Below, one piece after another: positions 12,462-49,728 of a stretch of 64,000 nucleotides of DNA. The translations under genes and the position numbers were made by a program. The notes beneath the pieces were generated by a model. The model was not told the DNA's origin. It ran no database searches and worked only from the letters and a program-made list of their open reading frames with translations. Origin of the DNA: Candidatus Omnitrophota bacterium (lineage in GTDB: Bacteria > Omnitrophota > Gorgyraeia > Duberdicusellales > 4484-171). The stretch is taken from assembly GCA_016935525.1 (NCBI GenBank), contig JAFGQU010000002.1:34560-98559 (forward strand), given 5' to 3'. Positions within the stretch are counted from its first letter, which is position 1. Each line of letters starts with the position of its first letter.

Positions 12462-12540
12462 AAGAAACTCCTCTTAGACCAGGTATAATTGATCAAGAAC
12501 ACCTATTATAATTCAATAAAAGGCATTTTCAAAGGTAATA

Positions 12541-17314: not shown

Positions 17315-17625
17315 TGGCGGCCTATTATAAAATTACTTAGTATATAACATATATAACCCTAAATGTCAAGAAAGCGCTTACAGTTTTTCAGCTTGATTTT
17401 TCAAGCGATTTTTGCGGGAAAGTCCATTGAAAAAACAATACCTCGCAATGCCGGCTGTTGTTTGCGACCGGTGCCACGTTCGCGTCACGCCCTTAAAGAT
17501 TATAGGTTACCGTTATCAAAAGGACAAGGCTTTAAAAATCAGCCATTACCTCACACGGAGGCGGCTCCATTATTTTTTTAATACGCGCCGGCGGCGGCCG
17601 GAGTGAGGCTCTCCTTCATAAATAA

Positions 17626-17654
17626 TTGACTTTTCTTAAGATATATGTTAATAC
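17626..17654 (+). promoter_or_regulatory. possible sigma70-like promoter for the GGDEF gene
   Basis: TTGACT (17626-17631), 17-nt spacer, TAATAC (17649-17654). If real, the GGDEF CDS would start at the second ATG (17669, MENQ) rather than at 17645. Confidence 0.25.
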
Positions 17655-18832: not shown

Positions 18833-18993
18833 TGCACGTAACGCGACACGCGTACTGCGCACACGAGAATTTAGAAAGAAAAATCCTTCCAATATCCATG
18901 GTTAAATTTGTATCTTGTAGTATTGAATTGAACGCGTTACTCATGACGCATGACGCGTTACGAATAATACCTTCATGTAGATTATGAGGGTAA

Positions 18994-27129: not shown

Positions 27130-27213
27130 TGCGAGGGAGGGGATTTGAACCCCTACAGTATCGCTACCGCTAGCCCCTCAAGCTAGTGCGTCTGCCAGTT
27201 CCGCCACCCTCGC
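27130..27213 (-). tRNA. tRNA-Leu (GAG anticodon), long variable arm
   Basis: Reverse complement GCGAGGGTGGCGGAACTGGCAGACGCACTAGCTTGAGGGGCTAGCGGTAGCGATACTGTAGGGGTTCAAATCCCCTCCCTCGCA. Anticodon stem CTAGC/GCTAG, loop TTGAGGG, 14-nt variable arm, T-arm GGGGTTCAAATCCCC. Confidence 0.8.
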
Positions 27214-27809: not shown

Positions 27810-28565
27810 TTATTTTTTACCTTTTCTAGCCCACACCAGGAAATATCTGATTAATTTATATAATTCCTTACCCATCGCCCACGAATCCTTCGTTATGCTT
27901 ACAGTGCTTGAACTATTTCCCGACATAAAGATAGGTAGTTCTTTAATACGCATATCCTGCTGGCGCAGCTTGAGGATCAATTCGAGATCAAATAGAAACC
28001 CGGCGCATAAAAAATCCCCTCCCAGTCGATCAAACACATCTTTTTTCAGGAATTTCGCTCCCCCTTGGGTATCGGAAAATTCCAGTTTAAACAGGACTTT
28101 TACAATATAATTGAATACCCGGCTCAGGCATTTCCGAAAAAATTTCTGTCTTACGTTACCAAAGGAATTCCCCTTCCATTTAGAAAAAATAAGGCAATCA
28201 CAGGAATCATTATCCAATAAAGTAAGTTTATCTTTTATTAAATCCAGAGGAAACGGGGCATCGGCATCTACAAAACCGATAATAGATGTCCGGGCGGCTT
28301 TAAATCCTTCCTGAAGAGCAATCCCTTTCCCTAGCCGCTGTTTAAAATACAGATACGATACCCCGGGATCTTCCCGCGCGATATTTTTGATAATTGAGAG
28401 CGTATCGGACAGAGGGTCATTTACTACCACAATGATCTTTGGTCCTGAGCCAAACGTTGCCCTGATCTTCCTCATTGTATCGCCAATGTGCCTTTCGGCC
28501 CGGAAAGCGGGGATCACTACCGATATACCGCTATCGTATTGTGAACCGTTTTTTGATATTTGCAT
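27810..28565 (-). CDS. family 2 glycosyltransferase (polyprenyl-phosphate sugar transferase-like)
   Basis: ISVVIPAFRAERHIGDTMRKI and a DAD (DxD) motif in FVDADAPFP; 251 aa is the size of DPM1/GtrB-like enzymes. Confidence 0.75.
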   Translation of the reverse strand: MQISKNGSQYDSGISVVIPAFRAERHIGDTMRKIRATFGSGPKIIVVVNDPLSDTLSIIKNIAREDPGVSYLYFKQRLGKGIALQEGFKAARTSIIGFVDADAPFPLDLIKDKLTLLDNDSCDCLIFSKWKGNSFGNVRQKFFRKCLSRVFNYIVKVLFKLEFSDTQGGAKFLKKDVFDRLGGDFLCAGFLFDLELILKLRQQDMRIKELPIFMSGNSSSTVSITKDSWAMGKELYKLIRYFLVWARKGKK

Positions 28566-30033
28566 AAAAAGTTTTTGGTAGATAATAGAAATATTTTCTA
28601 TAGTATCTTCTGCGGGGAATATCCAGACGCTCCCGGGAAAACATCATATAAGGATATTCAATACATGCCGGATTTATCATCGGCAAGAAACGATATAATC
28701 TATGACGCACACACCAACGGAATATTCTCAGGGATAAAAAATGGTATAACACGAACAATAAATGGAACCTCTTTTTTTCTTTTGCCAGTCCCGGATCAAC
28801 CAAGGTGTTCGCATTTTCACAAGGGCACTCCTCCAGTTCTCTTATCTTTTGAGCATTAAGGACATCCTGTTTTTCGGCAATATCGACAATCGAAGTACCA
28901 GGATAATATTTCAACCAAAAGATACATATCCGATCGGGCCGATGTTGCCCGTAAAATTCTGCCATTTCAATCAAATCGCCGGTTGTTTCTCCGGGATATC
29001 CAATAATATTATCAACCACTATCCGCAACCGATAACTACGACATACCTCAATCGCTTTTATAATCTGTTCATTAGTGGTCATCCGCTGGAAAATACGTTG
29101 ACGGACATCAGGATTTACGCTCTGAACCCCCATACATAACTGATAGCATCCCCCTTGTTTCAAAAGCGAAATGGTCTCTTCGTCAATCGTGGAAGGAGAG
29201 CCAAAACAGTAAAAAGGTACGTTTATTTCTTTACGATAGCAAGCCACAAACTCTCTTAACCACGGGGTGTGGTAAGTAAACAGATCATCATTGATCCTTA
29301 ATAATTTAAAACGATATTTCTGTTTAGCGGCCCTTAATTCTTCCATTACGTTATCGACACTGCGTAATCTTATCCGCTTTGGCTCTTTACTGTACACCCG
29401 GTCCAGCACGGAATGGTGACAATAAGAACAACGGTTAAGACAACCCCGGCGAGTAATCAGAGTATAACCATGGTGGTAACCGGGGATTTCACGATAATAC
29501 AACTCTTTGTCCGGAAAAGGAAGGCTATCAAGATCAGCTATGAGTGGACGCACCGGATTAGAAATAATTTGTTTCTCTTTTTTCAACCATACATTGGGTA
29601 TTGAGTAATCAATCTTCCCTGATGCTAAAGATTGAACTAATTCTAGAAATGCGTACTCCCCTTCTCCGACGATAACTGAATCCACACATTCCTGTAAAAT
29701 GACTTTGTCCGGGACAGAAGAAGGATGAATCCCCCCCATGGTGATATGGACCGGTAAAGAAGCCTTTATTTTCTTTGCCAGATCGAGGGCCCAAAGATAA
29801 TTGGCACTCACGACGGAAAAAGCTATCAGTTGAGGTTGAAAATCTTCGATCTGTTTCAATAGTATCCGTTCGGAATTGAACAATCCGCTCAAGAAACCGC
29901 ATTTAAAAAAAGGATCCCGAAAAAGCTGAGGATCGAAGGCAAGACGGGTTTCTACCCCACAATCGAGTAGCATCGCAGAAAGGTATTCAATACCTATATT
30001 TTCAAATCCCGGATATACGAACATTACTTTCAT
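28531..30033 (-). CDS. B12-binding domain radical SAM protein (class B)
   Basis: MKVMFVYPGFENIGIEYLSAML B12-domain start; TRRGCLNRCSYCHHS CX3CX2C. Confidence 0.8.
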   Translation of the reverse strand: MKVMFVYPGFENIGIEYLSAMLLDCGVETRLAFDPQLFRDPFFKCGFLSGLFNSERILLKQIEDFQPQLIAFSVVSANYLWALDLAKKIKASLPVHITMGGIHPSSVPDKVILQECVDSVIVGEGEYAFLELVQSLASGKIDYSIPNVWLKKEKQIISNPVRPLIADLDSLPFPDKELYYREIPGYHHGYTLITRRGCLNRCSYCHHSVLDRVYSKEPKRIRLRSVDNVMEELRAAKQKYRFKLLRINDDLFTYHTPWLREFVACYRKEINVPFYCFGSPSTIDEETISLLKQGGCYQLCMGVQSVNPDVRQRIFQRMTTNEQIIKAIEVCRSYRLRIVVDNIIGYPGETTGDLIEMAEFYGQHRPDRICIFWLKYYPGTSIVDIAEKQDVLNAQKIRELEECPCENANTLVDPGLAKEKKRFHLLFVLYHFLSLRIFRWCVRHRLYRFLPMINPACIEYPYMMFSRERLDIPRRRYYRKYFYYLPKTFYANIKKRFTIR

Positions 30034-30046
30034 CGCTCTTTTTAGC

Positions 30047-31045
30047 TTATAGATATTGCGCTGCGTCGAAAATCGCGCTTAGTTTTCCTGAATAGATAAG
30101 ATTTAACTCTAACGTGGAGGTACACGCACAATAATCACACCCGGCAATCGGCATACTTTCTATGATCTCTTTTAAAGATTTGGATGACTGAAAATACTCC
30201 ACGGGTAAATTCGTTTTCTTTGACATCATCCCCGAACAACAATAGAAACTGCCCACCGGGTCGATACGGAAAAACATTCTACCGGCACAACAAGCCATCG
30301 GTCTATAATGAGGATAGTCACTTAAATACCCGAGACCTGCCTGAGAATTCACTATAGTCCGCCCATACCCTTTCTTTTTCATCTGGATAAGCTGAGAGAT
30401 CGTATCCTTGAAATTCTCCGGCGAAGGAATATATTCTTTTATATCCTTATCTCCGCTGAGCAACATATTTACCGGCTGGAATTTCACTGTAATCCCTAAA
30501 CTATAGGCAAGTTCTACCAGATACCCCGCATACTCTAGATTTTTTCTGGTCAAAGTCGTATTCAAAGAAACACGAATACCATATTTTCGGGCTACCTTTA
30601 CCGCTCCGATAACCTCATCATAATGCCCTTCTCTATTGCGCAGTATGTCATTGATCGAAGCCGGCCCATCGAGACTTATTTTTACAAGGTCTACTTTCTT
30701 CAGCCAATCTAATCTTTCCGCGAATAATATGCCGTTAGTAAGAATCCCCAATGTGATATTTTTATTTTTACAATGCTCAATAATCACACCTAAATCTTCA
30801 CGTAAGAGCGGTTCTCCGCCGCCGAAATGGATATGCCTTAGGCCTAAAGCTGCCAGATCGTCAATAATATAAAGGATATCTTCAGTCGATAACTGCGCGG
30901 ACCAATGATGCATCACATCGCAATAGAGACAAGAACAATTACATTGATGGGTGATATCCCACCCTATGAATAAAGGGACTCTTTTTTTCAACAATTTTAC
31001 CCGCAGCAGGTTTTGTACATAAGGAAATATTTTTTTTATTCTCAT
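30047..31045 (-). CDS. radical SAM protein with C-terminal Cys-rich SPASM/twitch-like domain
   Basis: WDITHQCNCSCLYCDV (CX3CX2C), FGGGEPLLRED; C-terminal CCAGRMF...YCCSG...AGCDYCACTS. Start reset to MRIKKIFP at 31045 forming an ATGA stop/start overlap with the upstream gene. Confidence 0.8.
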   Translation of the reverse strand: MRIKKIFPYVQNLLRVKLLKKRVPLFIGWDITHQCNCSCLYCDVMHHWSAQLSTEDILYIIDDLAALGLRHIHFGGGEPLLREDLGVIIEHCKNKNITLGILTNGILFAERLDWLKKVDLVKISLDGPASINDILRNREGHYDEVIGAVKVARKYGIRVSLNTTLTRKNLEYAGYLVELAYSLGITVKFQPVNMLLSGDKDIKEYIPSPENFKDTISQLIQMKKKGYGRTIVNSQAGLGYLSDYPHYRPMACCAGRMFFRIDPVGSFYCCSGMMSKKTNLPVEYFQSSKSLKEIIESMPIAGCDYCACTSTLELNLIYSGKLSAIFDAAQYL

Positions 31046-32037
31046 ACTACTTTCCTTAATACCATCCTCCCGGTATTCCAAATCGCTTCCGGATGCAATC
31101 CGTATAAGAGGCTCATTTCCACCCGCTGCGCACACCAGCAGGAAGAACAATGGCCAGCAACAAGTCGTTGAAATGCTTCAGCCACCCCATTATCGACAAT
31201 ATTTATCCTGGTTTTCTGGTTCCGGTTGCACACACATACATCTCCCGAACTCTGCACGCGACAGGAAAAATAGTCCGCCCTACAGCGCAAGGGATAAGGT
31301 CCCGGCCAATGGGCAAAATGGCGTAAACATGCCGATGAATTGGTAATATATATATTTTTTTTCTTAAGAATAAGCAATTTTTTTATCGCCGCGCTATATT
31401 CTTCAAAAGAAGGAAGTAAAGGATTGTCTTGATGAGCACAATACAGTAAAGATGTAGTAAGCGGCTGAAAGGTTATTGTTGCTTGATACGACTGTGCTGT
31501 CGTTAACAAAAAATCGATTTGATCCAAGTTTAAGCGGGTCAAGGTCGCCGCGAAATTCAAAGGGATATTATGCCGCCGGGCACATTCAGCGGCTTCTAAA
31601 ACCTTATCGTAAGACCCTTCCTGCCGGATCGTATCATGAACCGACCGATTTCCCTCTATACTAAGACTTAACAGATCTACTTTTTGCAAAGAATCGATCT
31701 TTTTTTTCACATCCCATCCGTTCGAACTCACCGAAACATATATGCCTTTCTTTTTACAGTACGCGATGATCTTTCCAAGATCATCGCGCAGGAGCGGTTC
31801 GCCGCCGGTAAAAGAAATAAACCGGGTCCCTAATTGAAAGAAATCTACGATTTTTTCGATAACAACATCGGTAGATAACTCTTTCTGAGGGGTTTCCCAG
31901 ACTCCACAATATACACAACGCAGATTACAACGGGAGGTCAGGGCCCAACTTACCAAAAGGGGGATCTTTTTCCCGCAAAACTTGACTTTACTCAAAGTGA
32001 TCAGCAATTTCAATATGTCATTGTATTTCATTTTCAC
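31042..32037 (-). CDS. radical SAM/SPASM-like protein
   Basis: LTSRCNLRCVYCGVW, FTGGEPLLRDD; C-terminal CRADYFSCRV...CVCN...GHCSSCWCAQ. Confidence 0.8.
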   Translation of the reverse strand: MKMKYNDILKLLITLSKVKFCGKKIPLLVSWALTSRCNLRCVYCGVWETPQKELSTDVVIEKIVDFFQLGTRFISFTGGEPLLRDDLGKIIAYCKKKGIYVSVSSNGWDVKKKIDSLQKVDLLSLSIEGNRSVHDTIRQEGSYDKVLEAAECARRHNIPLNFAATLTRLNLDQIDFLLTTAQSYQATITFQPLTTSLLYCAHQDNPLLPSFEEYSAAIKKLLILKKKNIYITNSSACLRHFAHWPGPYPLRCRADYFSCRVQSSGDVCVCNRNQKTRINIVDNGVAEAFQRLVAGHCSSCWCAQRVEMSLLYGLHPEAIWNTGRMVLRKVV

Positions 32038-32113
32038 TATAATTCACCATTGACCGGATGTGGTATATATTATTCCGAAAATCAAACCGGGATCTGCATA
32101 TTGGATCTTTGAA

Positions 32114-34006
32114 TTAGATCTTTATGTTATACCTCTCCGCCCAAAGATAAAAACAAAGTAACCCGAAAATCTTCCAACTATGGTCTTCCTGCCGGAGACG
32201 ATGCTGACGCAACAAAATTTCAATGTACTTACGCTGAAATACCTGCCCGGTTAATTTAGATGAAAAGAAAACTTCTTCTGCTGTCTTGCCCCAATCATTA
32301 CGGATCCATAAAGATAACGGGGTAGTAAACCCCCGCTTAGGCCTGTGGATAATCTTATGAGGTATTTTCCCCGCCATTATTCTCTTAAAAATATATTTCG
32401 TAGTAAACCGATGCAATTTCATCTCTAAGGGCAGATGTGCGCAAAAGGCGACAAGCCGATGGTCCAAAAAAGGCACACGACTCATTAATGAGAACGCCGA
32501 AGTCATGCTGTCTAACCGTTTGAGCATTGAAAGCAGCAGGATTTTTTGATCGGCATAAAGGACTTTCTCGAGGATAGAGGCATCTTCTCTTTTCCTATAA
32601 TAAAAGTCATAGAGAGAAAAAGGATCATAATTTCCCATTCTCTCGGTTATCGCGGGACAGCATAACTGTTCTCTTTCAAAACCAGAAAACACTTCCCGCC
32701 AGAAAAAATGGGCGCGACCTAAAGGATACTGCGTTCCTTGTAAGAATCTCTTTAATTTAAACCTCATTCCCCAAGGATTATCCCCAAGAAGACACCGAAT
32801 ATCCAAAATCTTATGTACATATTGTAAGCCGGCTGGGGATAAAAAACGGCTCAACATGCACAGCAATTTATCCGCTACATAGGTATCATATCCGGCAAGA
32901 ATCTCATCAGCGCCGGTTCCGACAAAAAGGATCTTAACCGATTGGCTTGCGAATTGGGATATAAAATAGGTGGGGATAATACTGGGGTCTGCGATCAGAT
33001 CGCTATTATGTTTCATGAGCGTTTGAAGCGTATGGATATCTACATCTGCCGAAGAGATAACGATTTCATGGTGATCGGTTTTTAATTGACGGGAAAACCA
33101 TTGAGCATACCTTCGGTTATCATCAAATTTTTTCTCTCTAAAGCCTAAAGAAAAGGTGGAAAGCGGCCTTGAATCTTGATCAAGGAAATAGCTTATCGCC
33201 GAAGAATCGATCCCTCCGCTTAATAAAACCCCCTGTTGGGGCACTCCAATAGTCCTTTTATGGACAGCATCTTCTAAAAGGCATTCAAATCGTTCTTCGT
33301 ACTGTTTCTTTTGGGTGTACTCTTTTTTTTCGTTTTCCAGAATATCCCAGTATTGCACTTTACGCATCTCTTCTGGAGAAAACGACACATATGTCCCCGG
33401 TTCAAGCTGATGGATACCTTTAAATAACGTCAACGGGCCCGGCACATAATTAAGAGAAAGATATTGGGCGAATGCCGTATAATCTAACTCTCGCGGTATC
33501 TGTTGGTTGCATAACAATGCGCTGATTTCTGAAGCGAAAAAGAGTGATTGATGACGACGATAATAATAAAGAGGTTTCACTCCCAAATGGTCACGCGCCA
33601 TGTATAACACATTTTTAAATTTATCGAAAAGGCAAAAAGAAAATATACCGTTAAAACGGCCCACACATCCTTCCCCCCATTCTTTATAACTGTTTAATAT
33701 CACCTCTGTATCTGAATCCGATTCGAATGCATATCCTTTACGTTGTAATATTTCTCTGATTTCTCGATAATTATATAGTTCTCCGTTATATACCAGGATG
33801 GTCTTTTCGGCCCGATCACACATTGGCTGTTGGCCTCCGGAAGAACCGATAGTAACCAGCCGAGAATGTACGGCAGCGAACGAATTGGTAGAGAAAATAC
33901 CAATTTCATCTGTCCCCCGATGGGCTATGGCCTGAGACATTTCTCGCACCTGAAATGTTGTGGCTGGAGATCGCTCAAAATCGATATACCCGGCAAATCC
34001 ACACAT
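32114..34006 (-). CDS. asnB: asparagine synthetase B-like glutamine amidotransferase
   Basis: Ntn start MCGFAGYIDFE, PP-loop LLSGGIDSSAISYFL, 630 aa. Confidence 0.8.
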   Translation of the reverse strand: MCGFAGYIDFERSPATTFQVREMSQAIAHRGTDEIGIFSTNSFAAVHSRLVTIGSSGGQQPMCDRAEKTILVYNGELYNYREIREILQRKGYAFESDSDTEVILNSYKEWGEGCVGRFNGIFSFCLFDKFKNVLYMARDHLGVKPLYYYRRHQSLFFASEISALLCNQQIPRELDYTAFAQYLSLNYVPGPLTLFKGIHQLEPGTYVSFSPEEMRKVQYWDILENEKKEYTQKKQYEERFECLLEDAVHKRTIGVPQQGVLLSGGIDSSAISYFLDQDSRPLSTFSLGFREKKFDDNRRYAQWFSRQLKTDHHEIVISSADVDIHTLQTLMKHNSDLIADPSIIPTYFISQFASQSVKILFVGTGADEILAGYDTYVADKLLCMLSRFLSPAGLQYVHKILDIRCLLGDNPWGMRFKLKRFLQGTQYPLGRAHFFWREVFSGFEREQLCCPAITERMGNYDPFSLYDFYYRKREDASILEKVLYADQKILLLSMLKRLDSMTSAFSLMSRVPFLDHRLVAFCAHLPLEMKLHRFTTKYIFKRIMAGKIPHKIIHRPKRGFTTPLSLWIRNDWGKTAEEVFFSSKLTGQVFQRKYIEILLRQHRLRQEDHSWKIFGLLCFYLWAERYNIKI

Positions 34007-34277
34007 AATTATTTTTTAATGTGCATATGAGAAATCACTGAGGAAGGGCTTTCCCGGTAAAAAAAGGCAATATAACGGCATTCAAGAAAAAAACCTTGAC
34101 GGTTAATAAAAAAATCCACACATCCTCCCGTTTCAACAAAAACCATATGCCATCATAGTATCAATGAGATGAAATTGGAATGTGCCTATTGATTGATTTA
34201 AACCGGTATGAGCAGAAACCAACAAAATTCGTGAGGTACTATTTTCCTTATATCATCCGGTATATGTTCCTAAAAGA

Positions 34278-36005
34278 TTAATTGTCGTTGGGATTATTAT
34301 GGATTTTCTTCTCTTTAATTTCTCTCAAGAGGTCGGCGTAACCTTTATCAATTCCCTCTAATGTGTTAATAACGCCTGGCAAGCGATTCAGATATTCATC
34401 AGAAGTGCTGTGAGCGTATATGATTCCCAATAAAAAATACCCATCAGGGTGAGTGGGGGCGATCTTAATCGCTTCTTGATAGGATTTTACCGCAGGTTCG
34501 GTCTCTCCCACACGCGCATATATATTCCCTAATCCGATATGCCCAGCGATGTTTGAATGGTCTAACGCGACCGCTTTCTGGAAATACTCTTTGGCTTTCG
34601 TAAAATCTTCCCGGCCGAAATAGAATTCACCGATCCGGGTGTACACGCCGGCATCTTCATATCCTAATGACGCTGCTTTTTCAAAATGTTCAAGGGCAGA
34701 TTCTAACTGGCCTTCGGTCAAATAGACATGGCCCAAATTCATATGGGTAGCCGCATTCTCTTGATCGAACTGAATGCTTTTTTGATAGTATTTTTTTGCT
34801 TCGGGAAGGTCGTTTTTCTGCTGATACAGATCGCCCAGACTCCGATAGAGTCCCGCGTTATTTTGATCCTGCGTGAGCCCCTGACGATAATATTCTTCGC
34901 ATTTCTCGATATTTCCGGTCCGCTTATAAAGATTCCCTAAAATACTATACAGATTAGGATCTTTGGGATTGAGCGGTAACGCTTTTTCAAAATATCCAAT
35001 AGCCTTCTCCCATGCTTCTTTTTGGACATAGATATCCCCCAGCTCAAAATAAGCGGTATAATTATCCCCGGCTACGTCGAGCGCCCTCTGGAAAGAAGCT
35101 ATAGCCTCTTGGAAATTGCCTTTGCGCTTGTAGAGCTCCCCCAAACGGGTAGGGATGTCCTCCCGGGATACATTCAACTCCTGCGCTTTTTTAAAATATT
35201 GTATTGCTGTTTCTGTATTGTGTAACTTATCGTATATGTCTCCCAGAACGAAAAGGATCTCCTCACTATCTCCCTGAATCTTATAAGCTTTATGAAAAAA
35301 ATCGGCGGCTTTTTCAAATTCACCGCTCTGTTTATATAAATTGCCGATATGAAAATAAATATCCGCATTCTCCCGGTCAAGTGAAAGTAAATGTTCATAA
35401 TAGACAATTGCATTTTTGATATCACCTTTTTGCAGATAAAAATCTCCTAAAATATAATAGGTACGCGGATAGGTTGGGTCTATTTGAAGAGATTTTTCGT
35501 AAAAGTATATCGCCCGGTCAAGATCGTTCCGATCCCGGTACTCATCTCCTACTTCCTGGAACAGATTTCTTACTTCATCATATCTACCGGAATCATGAGG
35601 ATCATCTAATAAACTGATCCCTTGAGAGTAGTACTCGAGAGCTTTCTCTTTTTCCTTAAGCTCATAATACATATCGGCAATATGTATGTAAAGATGCGGG
35701 TTATTCTGTTCGAGTTGCAGTATCTTTCGCCCGTAATCAAGAGCTTTGCGATATTCCTTTTGAGCCCGGTATGCTTCCATCAAAGAATAATACGCCGGAA
35801 TATAATCATCCTCTAGCTTAAGCGCCTCATTATAATATTTTATCGCTCCCGGAAAATCGCCCTGCTTAAACGCGGCTTCTCCCAACACGACCAGCTCTCG
35901 ATGTGTGTTCTGAACAACCACATACGGTTTTTTCTCCGGCTCGCACCCCGCGATAATAATGAATAACACAAAGGCTAACGTTATTCTCGTTACAAACGGG
36001 ACCAT
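34278..36005 (-). CDS. TPR-repeat lipoprotein
   Basis: Signal peptide plus lipobox LFIIIAGC; about 15 tandem 34-aa TPR units (AxxYYxxAL...P pattern throughout). Confidence 0.7.
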   Translation of the reverse strand: MVPFVTRITLAFVLFIIIAGCEPEKKPYVVVQNTHRELVVLGEAAFKQGDFPGAIKYYNEALKLEDDYIPAYYSLMEAYRAQKEYRKALDYGRKILQLEQNNPHLYIHIADMYYELKEKEKALEYYSQGISLLDDPHDSGRYDEVRNLFQEVGDEYRDRNDLDRAIYFYEKSLQIDPTYPRTYYILGDFYLQKGDIKNAIVYYEHLLSLDRENADIYFHIGNLYKQSGEFEKAADFFHKAYKIQGDSEEILFVLGDIYDKLHNTETAIQYFKKAQELNVSREDIPTRLGELYKRKGNFQEAIASFQRALDVAGDNYTAYFELGDIYVQKEAWEKAIGYFEKALPLNPKDPNLYSILGNLYKRTGNIEKCEEYYRQGLTQDQNNAGLYRSLGDLYQQKNDLPEAKKYYQKSIQFDQENAATHMNLGHVYLTEGQLESALEHFEKAASLGYEDAGVYTRIGEFYFGREDFTKAKEYFQKAVALDHSNIAGHIGLGNIYARVGETEPAVKSYQEAIKIAPTHPDGYFLLGIIYAHSTSDEYLNRLPGVINTLEGIDKGYADLLREIKEKKIHNNPNDN

Positions 36006-36069
36006 TGATCTCTTCTTTTTTGGCCTATAGTTTTATCTTCTTTTCTATGTTCGGTCATTGCGCTCATTT

Positions 36070-37419: not shown

Positions 37420-37889
37420 CTTTTCAGATCAAGTTCTTTCTCGATATTTTCCAAAAACTTCGTAAGTTCATAAAAATTCTGATTCATATCTTTTACGTCG
37501 CAGGCCAATCTTTCAATAATCTGCTGTTTCTCCTGTGATGTGCATTCTATTGTATTCAAATGTCGATGTATCCGCTGAACGTATTCCTCGTAAGGATCAA
37601 ATTTACGGCTTACATCTTCAACCGCATCACGGATTCTTTCCAGAACGAGCTGATTTCTACGGATATCCTCTAAGATCGATAGGTTGTTATTCACCAAAAA
37701 GAAAAGAAATTCTCCTATATTTACGAATAATTTTAAGACCAACGCGCTTATAACACTGCCTCCGATACAAAGTACTGGAATCCACCACGATCTATAAAAA
37801 TACCAGTAACTCATAGAACCTACTATTCCAATACCTAATAATATCCACGCACAGACAGTAACCGCTCTTCCCGTAGGGGTTTTTTTCAT
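37416..37889 (-). CDS. small membrane protein with cytoplasmic coiled-coil tail
   Basis: Two N-terminal TM helices, then a charged helical region (EDIRRNQLVLERIRDAVEDVSRKF...). Confidence 0.4.
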   Translation of the reverse strand: MKKTPTGRAVTVCAWILLGIGIVGSMSYWYFYRSWWIPVLCIGGSVISALVLKLFVNIGEFLFFLVNNNLSILEDIRRNQLVLERIRDAVEDVSRKFDPYEEYVQRIHRHLNTIECTSQEKQQIIERLACDVKDMNQNFYELTKFLENIEKELDLKR

Positions 37890-37890
37890 A

Positions 37891-39216
37891 TCATACCTCC
37901 TTTTTGGTCTTCACGACTTGGTTCTGAGATGCTTTTATCAGATTAACCATTTCCGGCAGATAGCTTTCGAGTCGGGACAACCAATCCTGCCAAGAAATGA
38001 ACATACTCCCAAAAAGACCCTTTTCAATCCGGTCATGGTCTTTTTTAAAAAAATCACTCCATTCTTTTTGAAGCACATAGAGCGATAACAATTTATCTTC
38101 AATAAGCAGGATGTCTCCTCCTTTACCGGTAAAAATGCTTTCGGTGATATGGGCTATCAGTACTTTCAAAAAATCGGAATCCGAGAATGTATCTTTCAGT
38201 ACATCCCCGATAAGCAGTAAAAATACAAACACATTTTGAAGCACCCGGCGCCGGGGCACCACAAGGGTCCTGAGCGACTTTCTTGTATCATCAAAATGAT
38301 AAAAGAAAGTAAGATCTAACAAAATCAGGTATAGCACCGGCAAAGAAAGGGTATGATCGATACGTAAAAAGACCTGTTTATCATATCGTATAAAAAGGTA
38401 ATCTTTGAGAGAAAGGATAAAAGGAAGAATCAAGTCGATATAAAGCAGATCTATTCTTTTGTTACGAAAATCTTCTTGTAGGAACCGGGCTCCCAGGCCA
38501 AGGTTTTCCTCCATCTTCACCGAAGGGTCTTTCTCATAGAAACCCTGTTCTTTATGAAAATCGTAATTCCAGCTCCAGAAAGAATGAAAGAGAGAAGATA
38601 TGGTATCTTTTTTTAAATGAAAAACACGGGCCGCCGGCTCGTACATCAATAGATGGTCTTTCTGTTTTAATCTCCGGGATATATCTACATCTTCATAATT
38701 ATTGCGGTAGCGCTCGTCATAGAAACCTACCGAATATAATGCTTTTTTTCTAAACACATTGTTGGAACCGAACAGAAACGGGACCGAATCATCTTTTTGT
38801 TCTCCCCACTCCTGTTTCATATGGACTGCCCGCCACCGGTCCACGGGATCATGAGCATACGATTCCAGCAACCGTCCGCCGACACCGGCTATTTTCTCAG
38901 AAGAAAAATTCTCCATGAGCCGGCTCAGCCAATCACGCTCCGGTATGCAGTCGGCATCTAACGACGCGATATATTCTCCCCGAAGATTCTGTAAAGCGGT
39001 ATTGCGGGAGGCAACCAGGCCTTTATTAGAAGGATGTTGAATAAGGGTCACCGGGAATTTTCTCACGATATCGGCAGTGCGGTCGGTAGAACCGTCATCA
39101 ACCACTACTATTTCCTCTATGGGATGGTCCTGGACCATGATTGCCTGGAGGCAGCCGGCAATATATTCTTCAGCATTGAAACAGGGAATATACACGGATA
39201 CTTTCATATGAGCCAT
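37891..39216 (-). CDS. family 2 glycosyltransferase with ~200-aa hydrophobic C-terminal extension
   Basis: VSVYIPCFNAEEYIAGCLQAIMVQDHPIEEIVVVDDGSTDRT GT2 N-terminus and a DAD (DxD) motif in SLDADCIPE. The C-terminal third has several hydrophobic helices. Confidence 0.7.
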   Translation of the reverse strand: MAHMKVSVYIPCFNAEEYIAGCLQAIMVQDHPIEEIVVVDDGSTDRTADIVRKFPVTLIQHPSNKGLVASRNTALQNLRGEYIASLDADCIPERDWLSRLMENFSSEKIAGVGGRLLESYAHDPVDRWRAVHMKQEWGEQKDDSVPFLFGSNNVFRKKALYSVGFYDERYRNNYEDVDISRRLKQKDHLLMYEPAARVFHLKKDTISSLFHSFWSWNYDFHKEQGFYEKDPSVKMEENLGLGARFLQEDFRNKRIDLLYIDLILPFILSLKDYLFIRYDKQVFLRIDHTLSLPVLYLILLDLTFFYHFDDTRKSLRTLVVPRRRVLQNVFVFLLLIGDVLKDTFSDSDFLKVLIAHITESIFTGKGGDILLIEDKLLSLYVLQKEWSDFFKKDHDRIEKGLFGSMFISWQDWLSRLESYLPEMVNLIKASQNQVVKTKKEV

Positions 39217-39264
39217 GCCCGTCCTATATCATTTCGGTCAAAAACAAAAAGAGAATACAGCGAT

Positions 39265-40488
39265 CTATTGCAATAGTTTCAACTCACGCTGAAGAGAATC
39301 TCTCGCTCGAGCGATTTCCGATAACGTCCGGGCAAGCCCATCGTCAACTGTGATGTCCGTTTTTCGCCCGGATATTTTCTTCTTTAAAAACATTTCTATT
39401 TTCTTTACAAAATCACTGAATGTACCCTGATACGAAGAATAAAATTTCCAACGACGCCGCCAGCGGGTTACGGCTTTATTCAAGGTTTCTTTTAATCTCC
39501 GGTTTTTCATGGCTTCTATCTTCTTGGTCAACATCCTTTTTACAGAATCGCCTCCGAAGACTTCGTCATAACAACTCATCATACATCCTCGACAGCCTCT
39601 TTGCCTGAGACTCTCACGCATAGCATTATGACGCTCCGAATTCCACATATCGAGTAGCCGTTCTTCTTTTACGTTACCGATGGTTTTATCAGGTTGAGCT
39701 AATACCCAGCAGAGATACACATCCCCGCCCGGAGCGATAGGACAGGACTGCCAGGGAGCCATGCACATGGAACGATGCCGAAAAGAATCTCCTGACAAAT
39801 AACCGGGGATCTTTTCTAAATAAGAAACCGGATTCGTAGAGATCCCTTGGGTATCGCAAGCATGGATTACTTTCCCTATTATTTTTTGCAGTTGGGGAAC
39901 TTCTTTATGAGTAATAAAAAAGTCATTATTCCTTGTTTTATCATGTAGAAAAAGGCTGTTGAACGGCTGAAATTTAATCGTTGTCGAATCGTATTTGCGC
40001 GCATAAGAAACTATTTCGGGAAGATATTTATAGTTGTATCGTGAGACCATCGTCGCGATAGTAGTCTCAATTTTATAATGCTGTAGATAAGCCAGGGCCG
40101 ATGTCACTTTGGAAAAACTTCCGGTGCCGCGTAAATACTCATGCACTTTATCGTTACCTTCCAGAGATACATTTACCACGTCGATACCGGATTCATAAAG
40201 AGCACGGGCTCTCTTCTCGTCAAGGAGAAGGCCATTGGTAGTCACGCAAGCGTTCATATGGTTCTGTTTTACATAGGAGATCAATTCAAACAGATCATCT
40301 CTCAAAAACGGTTCGCCGCCGCTGAATACCACAGTCGAAGCACCAAGTATATAGGCATCTTTGATCACCTGTTTCCAGCAGGATGAAGGAAGTTCCGTAT
40401 CGGCGTCATCGGGGATATCACACATACGGCAATTGCCGTTACAACGATGGGTAAGAGATATGATCACTTCTTTCAAGGTATTCTTCAT
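39265..40488 (-). CDS. radical SAM/SPASM-like protein
   Basis: LTHRCNGNCRMCDIP, FSGGEPFLRDD; C-terminal CMAPWQSCPI...CWVL...CRGCMMSCYD. Confidence 0.8.
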   Translation of the reverse strand: MKNTLKEVIISLTHRCNGNCRMCDIPDDADTELPSSCWKQVIKDAYILGASTVVFSGGEPFLRDDLFELISYVKQNHMNACVTTNGLLLDEKRARALYESGIDVVNVSLEGNDKVHEYLRGTGSFSKVTSALAYLQHYKIETTIATMVSRYNYKYLPEIVSYARKYDSTTIKFQPFNSLFLHDKTRNNDFFITHKEVPQLQKIIGKVIHACDTQGISTNPVSYLEKIPGYLSGDSFRHRSMCMAPWQSCPIAPGGDVYLCWVLAQPDKTIGNVKEERLLDMWNSERHNAMRESLRQRGCRGCMMSCYDEVFGGDSVKRMLTKKIEAMKNRRLKETLNKAVTRWRRRWKFYSSYQGTFSDFVKKIEMFLKKKISGRKTDITVDDGLARTLSEIARARDSLQRELKLLQ

Positions 40489-41657
40489 GGCTGTTTCAGT
40501 TTCTCCTCGTATTCGTTCAGCATACTCAACGCTTCCCTGAGAACCGTTTTTTTATCATTGTGCGCATCGTGGCGCAATTGATCAAGAAACTCTTTTATAA
40601 TACCGGACAGGGAATCGGCATCGGGATGAGCCCAACAGGTCTGTAAACAAGGCTTTGCGCAGGTTTTCATCAAAATCCGCGCTTCATACGCGTCTTCGCT
40701 GCGTAAACAACTACTAAGGCTCATCTTATGTATATTACCGAATGAATCTCCGCAACTTCTTACTTCTCCGTCCGGCCCGATATTAATGAATACGAAAGGG
40801 TTGCATTTCCATTGTTCCCGTTTTAGATTCCCCTCAAAATAGTTAAGCCACAAATAGGGATCGTGCAAAAACGCTACTAACCCGTTTTTCTTCTGATATT
40901 CAATAATCTTGTCGATCTGCGTTTTCAATATCTCCAGCTTAGCTTTGGTTATCCAGAACGGAGCATCACTTAATGTGTTCTGCATATTTTCCTGGACTAC
41001 AATCACCGGATGATAGACAAGGCATTCAACCCCTACCTCCCGTACCAGCGCTATCATCTCATACAGTTCGGTGACATTCTCGTTCATGATCGTCGTCCAT
41101 ACCGATATCTGCGGGCCATGACCTGACCTTCTTTTGGCCTGGACAAGGTTGCGCAGAGCATTTACCGCTTTATCAAAACTGCCTTTCGCACGTATCGCGT
41201 CATGAGTCTCAGGAGAAACTCCGTCTAAAGATACCGCGATATTATGTAACCCGCAAGACATTATCTTTACCGCGAGTTCTTGATCTATAAGCGCGCCGTT
41301 AGATACCGATTCGATATGAATATTCTTTCGAATACCATACGCGATGATATCGAATATATCTTTACGCAAGAAAGGTTCTCCGCCGGTTAATACGACCTCA
41401 CTTTTTGCGCGCCATTGGGCGATTTCATCAAAGACGTGCTTGACTCTTTCCGTAGTAAGTTCATAGTTTTGTAAAATCTTTACCACCCCGCACATCTTAC
41501 AACGATACGTACATCTATGACTTAAGCTCACATATACCCAATGAGGTTCTATGTAGGGATAGCCCGTTTTTTCGGAAAAATGATAGGCTAGATCCCGTTC
41601 AAACTTTTTAAGGTAACCTATATTCTGGCAAAGCACGTCTTTTCTATCCATGATCAT
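40485..41657 (-). CDS. radical SAM/SPASM-like protein
   Basis: LSHRCTYRCKMCGV, LTGGEPFLRKD; C-terminal WKCNPFVFINIGPDGEVRSCG...CAKPCLQTCW. Start MIMDRKD at 41657 gives an ATGA overlap with the methyltransferase stop. Confidence 0.8.
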   Translation of the reverse strand: MIMDRKDVLCQNIGYLKKFERDLAYHFSEKTGYPYIEPHWVYVSLSHRCTYRCKMCGVVKILQNYELTTERVKHVFDEIAQWRAKSEVVLTGGEPFLRKDIFDIIAYGIRKNIHIESVSNGALIDQELAVKIMSCGLHNIAVSLDGVSPETHDAIRAKGSFDKAVNALRNLVQAKRRSGHGPQISVWTTIMNENVTELYEMIALVREVGVECLVYHPVIVVQENMQNTLSDAPFWITKAKLEILKTQIDKIIEYQKKNGLVAFLHDPYLWLNYFEGNLKREQWKCNPFVFINIGPDGEVRSCGDSFGNIHKMSLSSCLRSEDAYEARILMKTCAKPCLQTCWAHPDADSLSGIIKEFLDQLRHDAHNDKKTVLREALSMLNEYEEKLKQP

Positions 41658-42484
41658 CGCCGGGCACACAAGGTAATGGCCTGCCCTTCCTTTCTTTGCT
41701 CGCGTCCAATAATATCGATGTTGCTGAATCCGGCATCATTGATCAATCGCACCAGATCGTCTTCACATAACCAAAACACTTTCCCCTTTACAGCGTTTAC
41801 CTTTATCCGGCTGTCTTCCCAGGCATATGTTCCACGGTATCTATTATTTTGATATTCTATGTGTACGAGCCTTTTGGGCGCGGCGGAAGAAGGGATACAG
41901 TGTGTCCAGACAAATATATTTCGGCTGATTTTTCCAAGATGATACATTATCTTTACCGGATCGGGAAGATGATACAGTATCCCTACCGCCAGACAAAGAT
42001 CGAATATCTGATCTATCTGAGGGACTACTTCATTTAAATCACCAAGAAGGAAAGTGCATCGTTTACTTCTCAAAGCGTTTTTTGCAACAAGGCATTTCAA
42101 GAAATTTTCTTCTCTCCCCTCGATGGAGATTATTTCCCCGGCTCCGGCGCCTTCCAGCATCATCGCGTGAGCCCCTTCCAGACTGCCTAATTCCAGCACA
42201 CGTAATCCTCTTATATCAATCTTTTCTAAAAGCACTTTTATTCTCGGTTCGACTTCTATATCCGAAGGGGCCGATTCTCTCAAAATAAAAGGGTCCTGAG
42301 AATACCGGCAATGCCAATGAGAAAACAGAGAAAATCCGTAATGATCTTTTGCGGCAATCCTGCCGAACGGCTTTCTCTTGGACCGGGCCCGGACCGTATT
42401 CATAGTTCGATTAAAGATGTTGTTCCATAATCCGCGATAATTCATCGATCTTCCTGGTTTGGGTTTTTGTGCATTTTTCAACAA
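41654..42484 (-). CDS. class I SAM-dependent methyltransferase
   Basis: Motif I VLELGSLEGAHAMML, then an acidic post-I residue and motif II-like ILYHLPDP. The true start may be an internal Met (about 42403-42445) because the track ORF overlaps the upstream gene by 74 nt. Confidence 0.55.
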   Translation of the reverse strand: MLKNAQKPKPGRSMNYRGLWNNIFNRTMNTVRARSKRKPFGRIAAKDHYGFSLFSHWHCRYSQDPFILRESAPSDIEVEPRIKVLLEKIDIRGLRVLELGSLEGAHAMMLEGAGAGEIISIEGREENFLKCLVAKNALRSKRCTFLLGDLNEVVPQIDQIFDLCLAVGILYHLPDPVKIMYHLGKISRNIFVWTHCIPSSAAPKRLVHIEYQNNRYRGTYAWEDSRIKVNAVKGKVFWLCEDDLVRLINDAGFSNIDIIGREQRKEGQAITLCARR

Positions 42485-42755
42485 TATCGGAAAATACCAA
42501 CAGATCTTTTTCCATTCTGAGGTTCATCTGCCTCAGCTGCCTAAGCTCAAAAAACATACGGAGCGCAAGAAAGGTTATATTACAGTTTAAAAACAAAGTC
42601 GCAAGCAAAGTCATACCCAGGATAAAAATACCCCGGTCAAAAACAAAATATTCCCGGTGGTCAATCCATAAGAACCCTATCCCCAATACTACCCCGCTCA
42701 TAATGATGATCTGGGGGGCAAGAAGCAATGCGGCAATTTTTATTCGTCGGCTCAT
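42411..42755 (-). CDS. small membrane protein with cytoplasmic coiled-coil tail (same architecture as 37416-37889)
   Basis: Three hydrophobic helices, then RQLRQMNLRMEKDLLVFSDIVEKCTKTQTRKIDELSRIMEQHL. Confidence 0.4.
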   Translation of the reverse strand: MSRRIKIAALLLAPQIIIMSGVVLGIGFLWIDHREYFVFDRGIFILGMTLLATLFLNCNITFLALRMFFELRQLRQMNLRMEKDLLVFSDIVEKCTKTQTRKIDELSRIMEQHL

Positions 42756-42765
42756 GTTCTCCTCC

Positions 42766-44163
42766 TTAATTAAGATTTTCTAAATCAGCAAAAGGGATGT
42801 TCACTTGTGCGGCAAGCTCCCTCTTTATGAATCTTATCTTTTCGATCCTCTCGCCAAAGTCGTGAGATTCGGATCCGGCATACCATTGACGCATCCGGTC
42901 GCGACCGGTCTCGATAATACCAAATCCCTTTTTGCGGGCGCCGAGGACCGAAGCCGGTAAAAGCACCAAAGGATGCACAAAGATATTGTGAATATTGCGC
43001 CGGTTCCTCTTAAGAAAATCTACAGTATACCGTATATCTTCCCAGGTCTCCCGGGGAAACCCGACAATGATATTTACGCTCACCTGAATGCCGGCGGCAT
43101 GGGTATCGCGAATAACTTTCCGGGCTTCCGTAAGCGAAAACCGTTTTCCCATAGACTGTAAGACCTTCTCGCTCCCGCTTTCCAGCCCCAGACTTACTGA
43201 CCGTAAACCCGCCTGATACGCCTTTTTCAGAAAAGGATAATCCATCTCCCGGCGGATCATCATCTGCCCGCCCCAGGAGACCGGCGGACGGCTCCGGATA
43301 AGTAATGCGATCAACTTACCGAGCATGATGACATCACCGTTGATCAACGAATCATTAAAATGGAAATAGGTCACGTGCGGATTTTTTTCTAATTGATACA
43401 CGATCTCTTCATATACATTCTCGGCGGTTCGCCGGCGGTACTTTCCCCAAAGGACCGATTCCTCACAAAAAAGACAACGGTTAATACATCCCCGGCTGGT
43501 TGATATAGGAAGCCCGGCTAAATCATAATGAGACAGGTCGAAGTCGGAGAAATCAGCAAACGGCAAGAAATCGAGCGGGACCGGAGAAGGGATATCAGGT
43601 TTTCCAACGAAAACGCTGTTGCTGTCTTTGTAGAGAAACCCGGAACAGGAAAAAGACCGGTTTTCTTCTATACTGTGAAACAATTCCCTTAACGCGATTT
43701 CTCCCTCGCCCAGACATACGGCGTCGACATAGTCAGCCCTGCACAATTCCTGAGCAAGTTCACGATGGAAACAAGAAAACCCGCCGAACACGATCTTTAT
43801 CTGAGGGTCCCTTTTTTTTATCATCGCCGCGACCGCTTCGCTATACCAACGTGAAGAATCGTAGATACTAAACCCAACCGCTTGATAACATTCCCCCATC
43901 AGTTCATCAACGAGTTGGTCTACATAGTATCGGTGACTTTCAATCGCCCGGTTGACAGATTCTCTCTCATACCAGTCGAGAGATTCTTCTTTTGAACATG
44001 AAGGAGCTCTTCGTTTAAACGACATATATCTCTGTATACGCACATTAAAATCATAACAACGGACCTGATGTCCATCCTGTTTCAAACAGGACGAAAGCAG
44101 GGCGAGATTATAAGGAGGCACCAATGTGCTCCATTGCGGACATTGAATTAATGCTACTTTCAT
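42766..44163 (-). CDS. B12-binding domain radical SAM protein (class B)
   Basis: MKVALIQCPQWSTLVPPYNLALLSSCLKQDG; TSRGCINRCLFCEES. Confidence 0.8.
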   Translation of the reverse strand: MKVALIQCPQWSTLVPPYNLALLSSCLKQDGHQVRCYDFNVRIQRYMSFKRRAPSCSKEESLDWYERESVNRAIESHRYYVDQLVDELMGECYQAVGFSIYDSSRWYSEAVAAMIKKRDPQIKIVFGGFSCFHRELAQELCRADYVDAVCLGEGEIALRELFHSIEENRSFSCSGFLYKDSNSVFVGKPDIPSPVPLDFLPFADFSDFDLSHYDLAGLPISTSRGCINRCLFCEESVLWGKYRRRTAENVYEEIVYQLEKNPHVTYFHFNDSLINGDVIMLGKLIALLIRSRPPVSWGGQMMIRREMDYPFLKKAYQAGLRSVSLGLESGSEKVLQSMGKRFSLTEARKVIRDTHAAGIQVSVNIIVGFPRETWEDIRYTVDFLKRNRRNIHNIFVHPLVLLPASVLGARKKGFGIIETGRDRMRQWYAGSESHDFGERIEKIRFIKRELAAQVNIPFADLENLN

Positions 44164-47646: not shown

Positions 47647-47654
47647 GTTATATC

Positions 47655-48689: not shown

Positions 48690-48724
48690 ATCGACCTTTT
48701 ACCGGTCTCTTTTGGCAATGTTCT

Positions 48725-49726: not shown

Positions 49727-49728
49727 AG

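Follow-up and report, generated by a model that had tools for sequence, protein, structure and literature searches.

A conserved cluster of radical SAM genes in Candidatus Omnitrophota with a putative role in tailoring an exported cell surface glycan

Class-B radical S-adenosylmethionine (SAM) enzymes carry out some of the hardest reactions in biology. To our knowledge only a handful have been characterized, none of them from a polysaccharide export pathway. In the ABC transporter-dependent pathways of glycan synthesis, the glycan is exported only once it has been fully assembled in the cytoplasm, and we know of no such pathway with as many radical SAM (rSAM) enzymes as the gene cluster described here. 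It was found in a window of 64,000 nucleotides (the whole stretch of DNA analyzed, positions 34,560 to 98,559 of contig JAFGQU010000002.1) from a metagenome-assembled genome of Candidatus Omnitrophota, an uncultured and ecologically widespread phylum of ultra-small, possibly host-dependent bacteria. The window carries four rSAM genes with a cobalamin (B12)-type domain, here named B12a to B12d. Most of the characterized class-B rSAM enzymes are methylases (PMC9204698; PMC12931638), although HpnJ and BchE are class-B enzymes that are not (PMC9204698). AprD4, an rSAM diol dehydratase acting on an aminoglycoside sugar, binds no cobalamin (PMC12931638).

The cluster (27810 to 63353, minus strand, the strand of almost all genes in the open reading frame [ORF] listing of the window) contains 29 same-strand genes in ca. 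35 kb, joined mostly by overlaps or gaps of <80 bp. Eighteen of these genes code for rSAM proteins, with a total of 19 rSAM domains (16 of the twitch/SPASM type and three of the B12 type), and each of the 19 has an intact CxxxCxxC cluster motif. Transcription proceeds from a FAD oxidoreductase through a Wzm permease, a Wzt/TagH-like ATPase, a fusion of a family 2 glycosyltransferase (GT2) with an rSAM domain, a double rSAM-SPASM protein, and nine tandem rSAM genes to B12d. After B12d come a small protein with two transmembrane (TM) segments, a class I methyltransferase, two rSAM genes, a 441-amino-acid (aa) GT2, and a protein with two TM segments and a coiled coil, and the series ends with B12c, a TPR lipoprotein, an AsnB-type amidotransferase, two more rSAM genes, B12b, and a final GT2. 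An ABC-2 permease, a Wzt/TagH ATPase, and glycosyltransferases are found in one operon, as in Wzm/Wzt-type export, with GT2 domains in four proteins (three stand-alone and one fused to rSAM). On balance, we favor the reading that the four genes code for functional rSAM enzymes of class-B architecture, which belong to a conserved system in Omnitrophota for the cytoplasmic tailoring of a cell surface glycan, prior to its export by Wzm/Wzt.

Two custom hidden Markov models (HMMs) of the N-terminal domain, compared to all six-frame ORFs of at least 60 aa, matched exactly four ORFs (the next best had an E value of >0.6). All of them are on the minus strand, B12a (330 to 1802; 490 aa) lying outside the main locus and B12b (28531 to 30033; 500 aa), B12c (36070 to 37419; 449 aa), and B12d (42766 to 44163; 465 aa) inside it. 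B12c and B12d have 100% identity to proteins encoded on a 171,716-bp contig of a Candidatus Omnitrophica metagenome-assembled genome. An earlier note on this DNA, made from the sequence alone, had counted four such genes in the locus plus a fifth outside; the ORFs that it listed are present on the minus strand, but there are three in the locus and one outside. The latter, placed by the note at 330 to 1763, is a genuine gene for which the gene caller on the source contig uses a different start, 1802. The class-B architecture predicted by the note, with an N-terminal Rossmann B12-type domain followed by an rSAM barrel, was recovered in the four proteins. PF04055 gave 68 to 80 bits in all of them (68.5 in B12a and 80.3 in B12b), and PF02310 gave 55.1, 46.7, and 47.8 bits in B12b, B12c, and B12d, respectively, above the gathering threshold of 32.1 bits, whereas B12a remained just below it (30.5 bits). 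The HMM of the B12d-family N-terminal domain matched B12a with an E value of 7e-62. Pairwise identity ranges from 23 to 33%; B12a and B12d form a pair (33% over 468 aa) while B12b and B12c each stand alone, and the four genes seem to belong to anciently diverged subfamilies. Their cluster motifs are CVNRCAFC (B12a, residue 259), CLNRCSYC (B12b, residue 198), CPFRCTFC (B12c), and CINRCLFC (B12d). The motif strings that the note had given for these proteins hold as a loose consensus, not as exact patterns, each fitting one to three of the four. Thus, (K/R)(I/V)xL(I/V) fits exactly in B12d alone (KVALI) and PPxxLAYL in B12a alone (PPANLAYL; B12d has PPYNLALL, B12c FPFFLAYT, and B12b nothing alike), while (S/R)RGCxxxCxFC fits three copies, B12b reading RRGCLNRCSYC. 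Given the HMM matches, chance need not be considered for these genes.

In OxsB, TsrM, and TokK, the contacts with cobalamin are made by xSx on β3, GG, and GE on α5, without a His ligand (PMC9204698). Counterparts of these motifs appear at the aligned positions of all four proteins, as GFSLYMS, GG, and GEGE in B12a, AFSVVSA, GG, and GEGE in B12b, and GFSIYDS, GG, and GEGE in B12d; B12c has the variants ETSTPS, GPH, and GEYE, which can be compared with the GGPH...GEGE of TokK. The AlphaFold model of B12d (predicted local distance difference test [pLDDT] of 90.1) had as top folds the cobalamin-bound TsrM, OxsB, CysS, MgmA, and TokK (E values of 1e-16 to 3e-21 and TM-scores of 0.64 to 0.71). Hence, PF02310 matches and contact motifs, the two features on which the earlier note had made the class-B assignment depend, are both in place. 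These motifs suggest that the B12-type enzymes use cobalamin, but a B12 domain should not be equated with "methyltransferase plus cobalamin requirement."

To place the four proteins relative to Fom3, GenK, and HpnP, scores against NCBIfam models stood in for a phylogeny. All four missed the cutoffs of the named methylase families (HpnP/HpnR, PhpK, KedN5, TsrM, and the C-methyltransferases of ribosomally synthesized and posttranslationally modified peptides [RiPPs]), with the PhpK, HpnR, KedN5, and TsrM models far below. The RiPP C-methyltransferase model TIGR03975 (cutoff of 282) was the best match of B12a (161 bits) and B12d (127 bits), and by this measure the two appear to be the likeliest candidates for cobalamin-dependent C-methyltransferases. 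They resemble class-B C-methyltransferases (TokK, CysS, MgmA, GenK/Fom3 type, and PoyC-like) in their TIGR03975 and ApyD matches, and their GG and GEGE motifs align with those of TokK. The model of B12d superimposes on TsrM, CysS, MgmA, and TokK with TM-scores of 0.64 to 0.69. However, identity to these enzymes is 14 to 19%, the scores are below cutoff, and there is no peptide or carrier-protein substrate context here; in addition, TokK and CysS have 645 to 681 aa, with long C-terminal substrate domains that B12a and B12d (465 to 490 aa) do not have. The best matches of B12b were HpnJ (112 bits), MJ_1487 (91 bits), and the ladderane-B12 family (89 bits), all below cutoff, and its assignment is ambiguous. 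The C-methylation with a cobalamin requirement that the note had proposed for all copies therefore seems plausible for B12a and B12d, with their best scores against TIGR03975, may or may not hold for B12b, whose matches are mixed, and is doubtful for B12c, since this protein is closest to the nonmethylases HpnJ and BchE and to the cobalamin-free AprD4.

The highest-scoring named families for B12c were HpnJ (TIGR03471; 261.5 bits, cutoff of 577.6), responsible for the ring contraction of the hopanoid cyclitol ether, and BchE, the anaerobic Mg-protoporphyrin cyclase (202 bits, cutoff of 481). Its best solved relative, both by sequence (82 bits) and by structure, was AprD4 (PDB 6fd2). The B12c model (pLDDT of 88.7) superimposed on it over the full length with TM-scores of 0.81/0.80 and a root mean square deviation of 3.9 Å, compared to TM-scores of 0.64 to 0.75 for the methylases and OxsB. 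B12c does not belong to any of these families: it scores below half of the HpnJ and BchE cutoffs and reaches 93 bits in the AprD4 model (NF033070, cutoff of 500) despite the TM-score of 0.81, and the window has no shc or hpn genes. AprD4 shares with B12c the N-terminal Rossmann domain and the rSAM barrel, and it acts on the ring of a glycosidically bound aminosugar. However, the two are 20% identical, AprD4 works without cobalamin whereas B12c passes PF02310 and has the TokK-like GPH/GEYE, and the aminoglycoside pathway is absent from the B12c locus. HpnJ, which also acts on an aminosugar, remodels the glucosamine added by the GT2 HpnI, a situation comparable to the succession of GT2, small TM protein, and B12c. 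In this case hopanoid and bacteriochlorophyll genes are absent, and B12c is instead accompanied by Wzm/Wzt and many other rSAMs. By analogy, and because of this fixed adjacency together with the HpnJ and AprD4 affinities, the (amino)sugar attached by the neighboring GT2 is probably the substrate of B12c, which would contract, rearrange, or deoxygenate it instead of methylating it and may do so without cobalamin.

All four B12 types recur within similar clusters elsewhere (designated below by L numbers). The B12c family is very conserved, with >120 database clusters at 50 to 56% identity and ca. 452 aa, and it comprises hundreds of metagenomic sequences (488 relatives in the metagenome scan). 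In each of the 24 retrieved metagenome loci of at least 15 kb, the B12c ortholog adjoins GT2 and/or Wzm/Wzt genes; at the median, these loci contain four additional rSAMs and two rSAMs of the B12 type. A core module composed of rS4, rS3-SPASM, GT2 (ca. 440 aa), the small TM protein, and B12c was found in L001, L002, L012, and L014, and in L013 its GT2 is fused to rSAM-SPASM in a single protein of 880 aa (GT2-rSAM-SPASM). Synteny is broader in L004, an Omnitrophota contig with the order AmOx, TPR, Wzm, Wzt, rS5, GT2-rSAM, B12d, rS14, rS13, rS12, rS10, rS9, rS7, rS6, rS4, and rS3, where orthologs are 40 to 60% identical to their counterparts in the window, except for the TPR protein (25%). Seven of the nine tandem rSAMs (rS5, rS6, rS7, rS9, rS10, rS12, and rS13) have orthologs there, at 41 to 59% identity, and six of the seven (rS13, rS12, rS10, rS9, rS7, and rS6) keep the same order. 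The AmOx-Wzm-Wzt synteny is also found in L013 and in many metagenome loci.

The same comparison bears on the B12-type genes at the edges of the cluster. A B12a ortholog (54% identity) is found inside the cluster in L005, and orthologs of the pair formed by B12a and its neighboring GDSL hydrolase gene lie within the clusters of L005 and L013, a GDSL-B12 (484 aa) pair heading the latter. The relationship that the earlier note had suspected between the outside B12a and the tailoring genes is supported by this location in other genomes. B12b orthologs are located beside orthologs of rS1/rS2 and GT2_a in L012 and L019 (in L012, the B12b ortholog is 55% identical and adjoins the rS1 ortholog). The regular intervals between B12-type genes to which the note had drawn attention are, on the other hand, incidental, as related loci have them adjacent or otherwise spaced. 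That the B12-type and SPASM rSAMs serve the same pathway, also proposed there, is supported by proteins elsewhere in which a B12-rSAM is fused to a SPASM-rSAM. B12d-related proteins with a second rSAM domain have 799 to 812 aa, and B12d is fused to a second rSAM in P0074 and L006. The latter locus (Candidatus Gygaella obscura, JAVCCR010000014, 1146 to 13309) codes for a 2,163-aa fusion of GT2, GT2, GT4/GT1, and rSAM-SPASM, a 900-aa fusion of B12-rSAM and rSAM-SPASM, and a 981-aa fusion of TPR and B12-rSAM, so that a few giant polypeptides seem to hold the entire tailoring line. At least four uncharacterized B12-type subfamilies are in this way tied to glycosyltransferases and Wzm/Wzt by synteny and gene fusion. 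Other genes related to surface glycans in these loci code for Wzy_C (ligase/polymerase type; beside the orthologous clusters in L002 and L014), PMT_2-TPR, polysaccharide deacetylase, sulfatase-fold enzymes, and CysD/N.

In L012 (ERZ23498930 scaffold_10, 985 to 19110), the 21 kb around the core module hold six rSAM genes with a B12 domain and seven without. This locus is labeled as Patescibacteria, its B12c is 54% identical to that of Omnitrophota, and the label may be a binning or annotation error. In L013 (ERZ27253378 k141_748423, 13136 to 20971), two genes of the sulfatase/phosphodiesterase fold and CysD/CysN-like genes for sulfate activation are found beside AmOx and Wzm, and some versions of the glycan may be sulfated or phospho-substituted.

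From the observed domain architecture, intact motifs, predicted folds, orthology, synteny, and fusions, we infer a glycan as the class of substrate, as well as the individual reactions, the use of cobalamin, and an order of steps that would be as follows. On the cytoplasmic side of the membrane, the GT2 glycosyltransferases would assemble a lipid-linked glycan, and the ca. 19 rSAM domains would abstract hydrogen atoms from unactivated sugar carbons, the B12-type enzymes accounting for three or four among many tailoring steps. The AsnB-type amidotransferase and the class I methyltransferase would add further decorations before Wzm/Wzt exports the finished polymer, which might then be attached by a WaaL/Wzy_C-type or PMT_2/TPR enzyme such as those found in related loci. 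As rSAM enzymes depend on SAM and on a low-potential reductant, and as their Fe-S clusters must be protected, they would have to act before export. An ABC transporter pathway, where the glycan leaves the cytoplasm in its final form, would suit this kind of tailoring, since SAM, reductant, and Fe-S enzymes are at hand in that compartment. The locus resembles the Wzm/Wzt O-antigen and TagGH teichoic acid pathways in its ABC-2 permease, its Wzt/TagH-like ATPase with a long C-terminal extension, its GT2s, and the Wzy_C/WaaL-type genes of related loci. It differs from them in that no initiating transferase or chain terminator was identified and in that the Wzt extension contains no recognized carbohydrate-binding module.

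Several observations weigh against this reading. No NCBIfam cutoff was reached by any rSAM of the locus or by B12a, and no member of these families is characterized. Neither an initiating phosphoglycosyltransferase nor a sugar-nucleotide biosynthesis gene nor WaaL was found in the window. The best scores of the GT2s are those against MftF, an enzyme that attaches sugar to a small cofactor, and from this likeness the product could possibly be a small glycoconjugate rather than a polymer. The nearest solved structure of the two core rSAMs, the cytosylglucuronate decarboxylase BlsE, is matched weakly (ca. 48 bits). As for cobalamin, the riboswitch and the uptake or biosynthesis genes that the earlier note had proposed to look for were not found, the former in the window (Rfam at the gathering threshold returned two tRNAs only) and the latter (cob or btu) in ca. 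95 kb (the window plus ca. 30 kb of flank). Cobalamin biosynthesis in Omnitrophota has been described as "present but not universal" (PMC10066038).

The reading of the earlier note, taken in full, would be that all four B12-type proteins are cobalamin-dependent C-methyltransferases acting on one pathway product, with an obligate requirement for cobalamin. This would agree with what most characterized class-B rSAMs do (PMC9204698; PMC12931638), with the PF02310 matches and GG/GE motifs of the four proteins, and with the affinities of B12a and B12d, which score best against TIGR03975, the fold of B12d also matching TsrM, CysS, MgmA, and TokK. We consider it unlikely, chiefly because of B12c, whose nearest relatives are HpnJ, BchE, and AprD4 (TM-score of 0.81 versus 0.64 to 0.75). 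The best matches of B12b are also mixed (HpnJ, MJ_1487, and the ladderane family), no cutoff of a methylase family was reached, and no cobalamin riboswitch or cobalamin gene is visible.

The other two explanations concern the substrate. The GT2-then-B12c echo of hpnI-hpnJ could point to the tailoring of a membrane lipid or glycolipid (hopanoid side chain, glycerol dialkyl glycerol tetraether [GDGT] or branched GDGT, or ladderane-like) through ring formation, bridging, or methylation, with no polysaccharide involved, and B12c does resemble HpnJ, B12b matches the ladderane lipid family with 89 bits, and weak matches to Tes and GDGT-MAS were found. Among the rSAMs known to modify lipids are enzymes of the B12 type (GrsA/B, Hgm, and HpnP/R/J) as well as of the SPASM type (Hbs), and the substrate of Cds is a lipid-linked hexose (bioRxiv 10.1101/2023.10.20.563219). 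Nevertheless, all the scores against lipid families are far below cutoff, squalene-hopene cyclase, hpnH/G/K, tes/mss, fatty acid, and isoprenoid genes are absent from the locus, and the association with Wzm/Wzt, several glycosyltransferases, Wzy_C, and an exopolysaccharide (EPS)-type AsnB is consistent across loci, which makes a lipid substrate improbable. Even less probable is a RiPP cluster, in which the SPASM and B12 rSAMs would modify a ribosomal precursor peptide (proteusin or ranthipeptide-like) to be glycosylated by the GT2s. The NCBIfam matches are mostly to RiPP maturases (PqqE, MftC, sactipeptide/ranthipeptide, TIGR03975, and ApyD), all below cutoff, the GT2s are MftF-like, and AsnB is somewhat similar to the lasso cyclase (261 bits, below cutoff), but this AsnB retains a full glutaminase domain and passes the asparagine synthase model. 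The SPASM-type proteins have no room for an N-terminal RiPP recognition element (RRE) or PqqD, their Cys motif starting at residues 16 to 70 except in the GT2-rSAM fusion, where it is internal, and in the second half of the 810-aa double protein. A PqqD, a protease, and an ABC exporter of the peptide type are all missing, the transporter being an ABC-2 Wzm/Wzt; the intergenic gaps hold no plausible precursor ORF, and no conserved small ORF was found beside the core module across 80 or more loci. Furthermore, rSAM domains are fused to multiglycosyltransferase proteins, and Wzy_C, PMT_2, and polysaccharide deacetylase are found in related loci. The RiPP explanation was rejected because the locus has neither RREs nor a precursor gene nor an exporter for peptides.

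Returning to the tailoring of an exported glycan, the enzymes are new uncharacterized subfamilies of a known superfamily, and their context, an rSAM-dense cluster with ABC export of a glycan, is without a characterized precedent. A search of one literature library found no account of rSAM-rich glycan clusters in Omnitrophota, although absence there is not proof of absence. It is conceivable, if still tentative, that polysaccharides are made here in a way not described before, the glycan equivalent of RiPP maturation, with extensive cytoplasmic editing of a simple GT2-made glycan by 10 to 20 dedicated rSAMs prior to Wzm/Wzt export, giving a polymer chemistry unseen in cultured bacteria and with B12c as a new class of sugar ring-remodeling enzyme. 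The edits might include C-methylation, ring contraction to carbasugars, deoxygenation, epimerization, and C-C or ether cross-links. If the glycan editing proves true, these clusters would be a large and tractable source of new radical carbohydrate chemistry and an oxygen-free route to carbasugar, deoxy, or C-methyl sugar polymers, and they could help to explain why the cell surface of Omnitrophota is unusual.

The remaining genes, all on the minus strand, are described in the order of transcription. The first gene of the cluster (62010 to 63353) codes for a FAD amine oxidase/PRK07208-type oxidoreductase (PF01593, 67.6 bits; PRK07208, 186 bits). It is followed by the Wzm-type ABC-2 permease (61231 to 62013; PF01061, 66 bits), with six TM-like segments, and the 909-aa Wzt/TagH-type ABC ATPase (58494 to 61223; PF00005), which scores 185 bits against TagH and 147 bits against Wzt, both below cutoff. 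The longest ORF of the ATPase overlaps wzm by 164 nucleotides, and the gene caller sets its start at 61223. Its C-terminal extension of ca. 650 aa has no Pfam match; inspected by eye, it appears to contain three repeated modules with W-R/N-I/L-x-L/I (..QVWNIWIDRD.., ..RQRWRIELTG.., and ..RQLWRLRLEN..), which may be tandem glycan-binding modules. The GT2-rSAM fusion (56349 to 58295, called as 648 aa; PF00535, 99.9 bits; PF04055, 79.2 bits) has orthologs of 51 to 53% identity in L001, L002, L004, and L005. The 810-aa double rSAM-SPASM protein (53866 to 56298) has two CxxxCxxC motifs.

The nine tandem rSAM genes, rS5 to rS13 (44203 to 53863), are of the twitch/SPASM type, with PF04055 and an intact CxxxCxxC in all nine and a C-terminal CxxxCxxxC triad in rS5, rS6, rS7, and rS9. 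They share 20 to 35% identity with each other, as do the non-B12 paralogs of the locus in general, and such low values indicate ancient duplications. In seven non-B12 rSAMs (rS4sp, rS5, rS6, rS7, rS9, the double rSAM, and the GT2-rSAM fusion), the C terminus has the CxxxCxxxC triad, with two or three spaced Cys ahead of it, in place of the canonical SPASM CxxCx5Cx3C; about half of the seven have no Pfam SPASM match.

Next to B12d are a small protein of 114 aa with two TM segments (42411 to 42755), weakly conserved with its positional counterparts, and the class I SAM methyltransferase (41654 to 42484; Methyltransf_11, 22.7 bits, above threshold), with orthologs at 39 to 40% identity in L001 and L014. 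The core rSAM pair (39265 to 41669) is formed by rS3sp (39265 to 40488; SPASM) and rS4sp (40485 to 41669), with 90 and 86 bits in PF04055 and 48 and 19.9 bits in SPASM, respectively, and their orthologs across loci are 41 to 61% identical. Like the sugar ring-acting rSAMs BlsE (47 and 49 bits) and BtrN, the latter matching the auxiliary cluster region of rS3sp, they might act on a sugar ring, although the weak similarity to BlsE is confined to the rSAM core and rS4sp has the variant C-terminal CxxxCxxxC triad. The 441-aa GT2 of the core module (37891 to 39216; PF00535, 119 bits) has MftF as its best NCBIfam match (133 bits, below cutoff) and orthologs of 40 to 44% identity upstream of B12c in L001, L002, L012, and L014. 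Between this GT2 and B12c lies the small protein with two TM segments and a coiled coil (37416 to 37889; C-terminal motif NCDxKDMNQ...IE..LDL), with subthreshold matches only in Pfam and none in NCBIfam. Members of its family are always found at this position (L001, 14232 to 14852; L002, 15670 to 16389; L012, 9624 to 10004; and L014, 9483 to 10001). They share a pair of TM helices at the N terminus, a coiled coil that differs in length, and the C-terminal motif NCDxxDxNQ...F..IE..LD, which is invariant; they may be a membrane scaffold for the core module.

Downstream from B12c, the 575-aa TPR lipoprotein (34278 to 36005) has 13 TPR repeats and a lipoprotein-like signal at its start (MVPFVTRITLAFVLFIIIAGC), with an N terminus (...FIIIAGC) that resembles a lipobox. 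Fusions of TPR repeats with PMT_2 glycosyltransferases or with B12-rSAMs occur in other loci. The glutamine-hydrolyzing AsnB-type amidotransferase (32114 to 34006; PF00733, 237 bits, plus GATase_7) is above the cutoff in TIGR01536 (421 bits), and its best match is the XrtA/PEP-CTERM EPS amidotransferase (427 bits, below cutoff). The rSAM genes rS1 (30047 to 31150) and rS2 (31042 to 32037), together spanning 30047 to 32037, gave 93 and 96 bits in PF04055, have intact CxxxCxxC motifs, and are 32 to 33% identical to each other. A GT2 of 251 aa (27810 to 28565; PF00535, 72 bits) is the last gene of the cluster. Outside it, the GDSL/SGNH hydrolase paired with B12a (1768 to 2835; PF13472, 46 bits) has an N-terminal TM or signal segment (TM-like residues 7 to 37).

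The GC content of the cluster is no different from that of its flanks, and a scan for promoters and terminators in the window was uninformative, with numbers of matches near those of shuffled sequence. Upstream from the cluster are genes for a 214-aa hypothetical protein, GH44, U32 peptidases, and a 930-aa GDSL protein. At its 3′ boundary there is a tRNA-Leu(GAG) gene (27130 to 27213, minus strand; Rfam). In an independent Logan assembly of the same sample, the contig ends at ca. position 27179 of the window (by coordinate arithmetic), near this tRNA gene, and this end of the cluster could be an island boundary or a strain-variable junction. Housekeeping genes (gatAB, tsaD, rpoD, dnaG, smc, etfAB, purC, and pckG) occupy the window from 4.5 to 27 kb. 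The earlier note had expected tailoring genes to continue past the window start, but beyond position 330 the source contig carries unrelated genes, coding for a 171-aa hypothetical protein, a cupin, CNNM transporters, a PIN protein, and QueA.

Two of the genes between B12a and the cluster are of further interest. The product of one of them (22176 to 24181, minus strand) is an EtfA homolog with an N-terminal 2x[4Fe-4S] ferredoxin domain (FixB/bifurcating type). EtfB adjoins it, and the pair is a possible source of low-potential electrons, although purC, pckG, and the tRNA gene lie between it and the cluster. In the product of the other (6058 to 6549, minus strand), an unusual fusion, a bactofilin domain is followed by a C-terminal HTH_17 (excisionase-type) DNA-binding domain.

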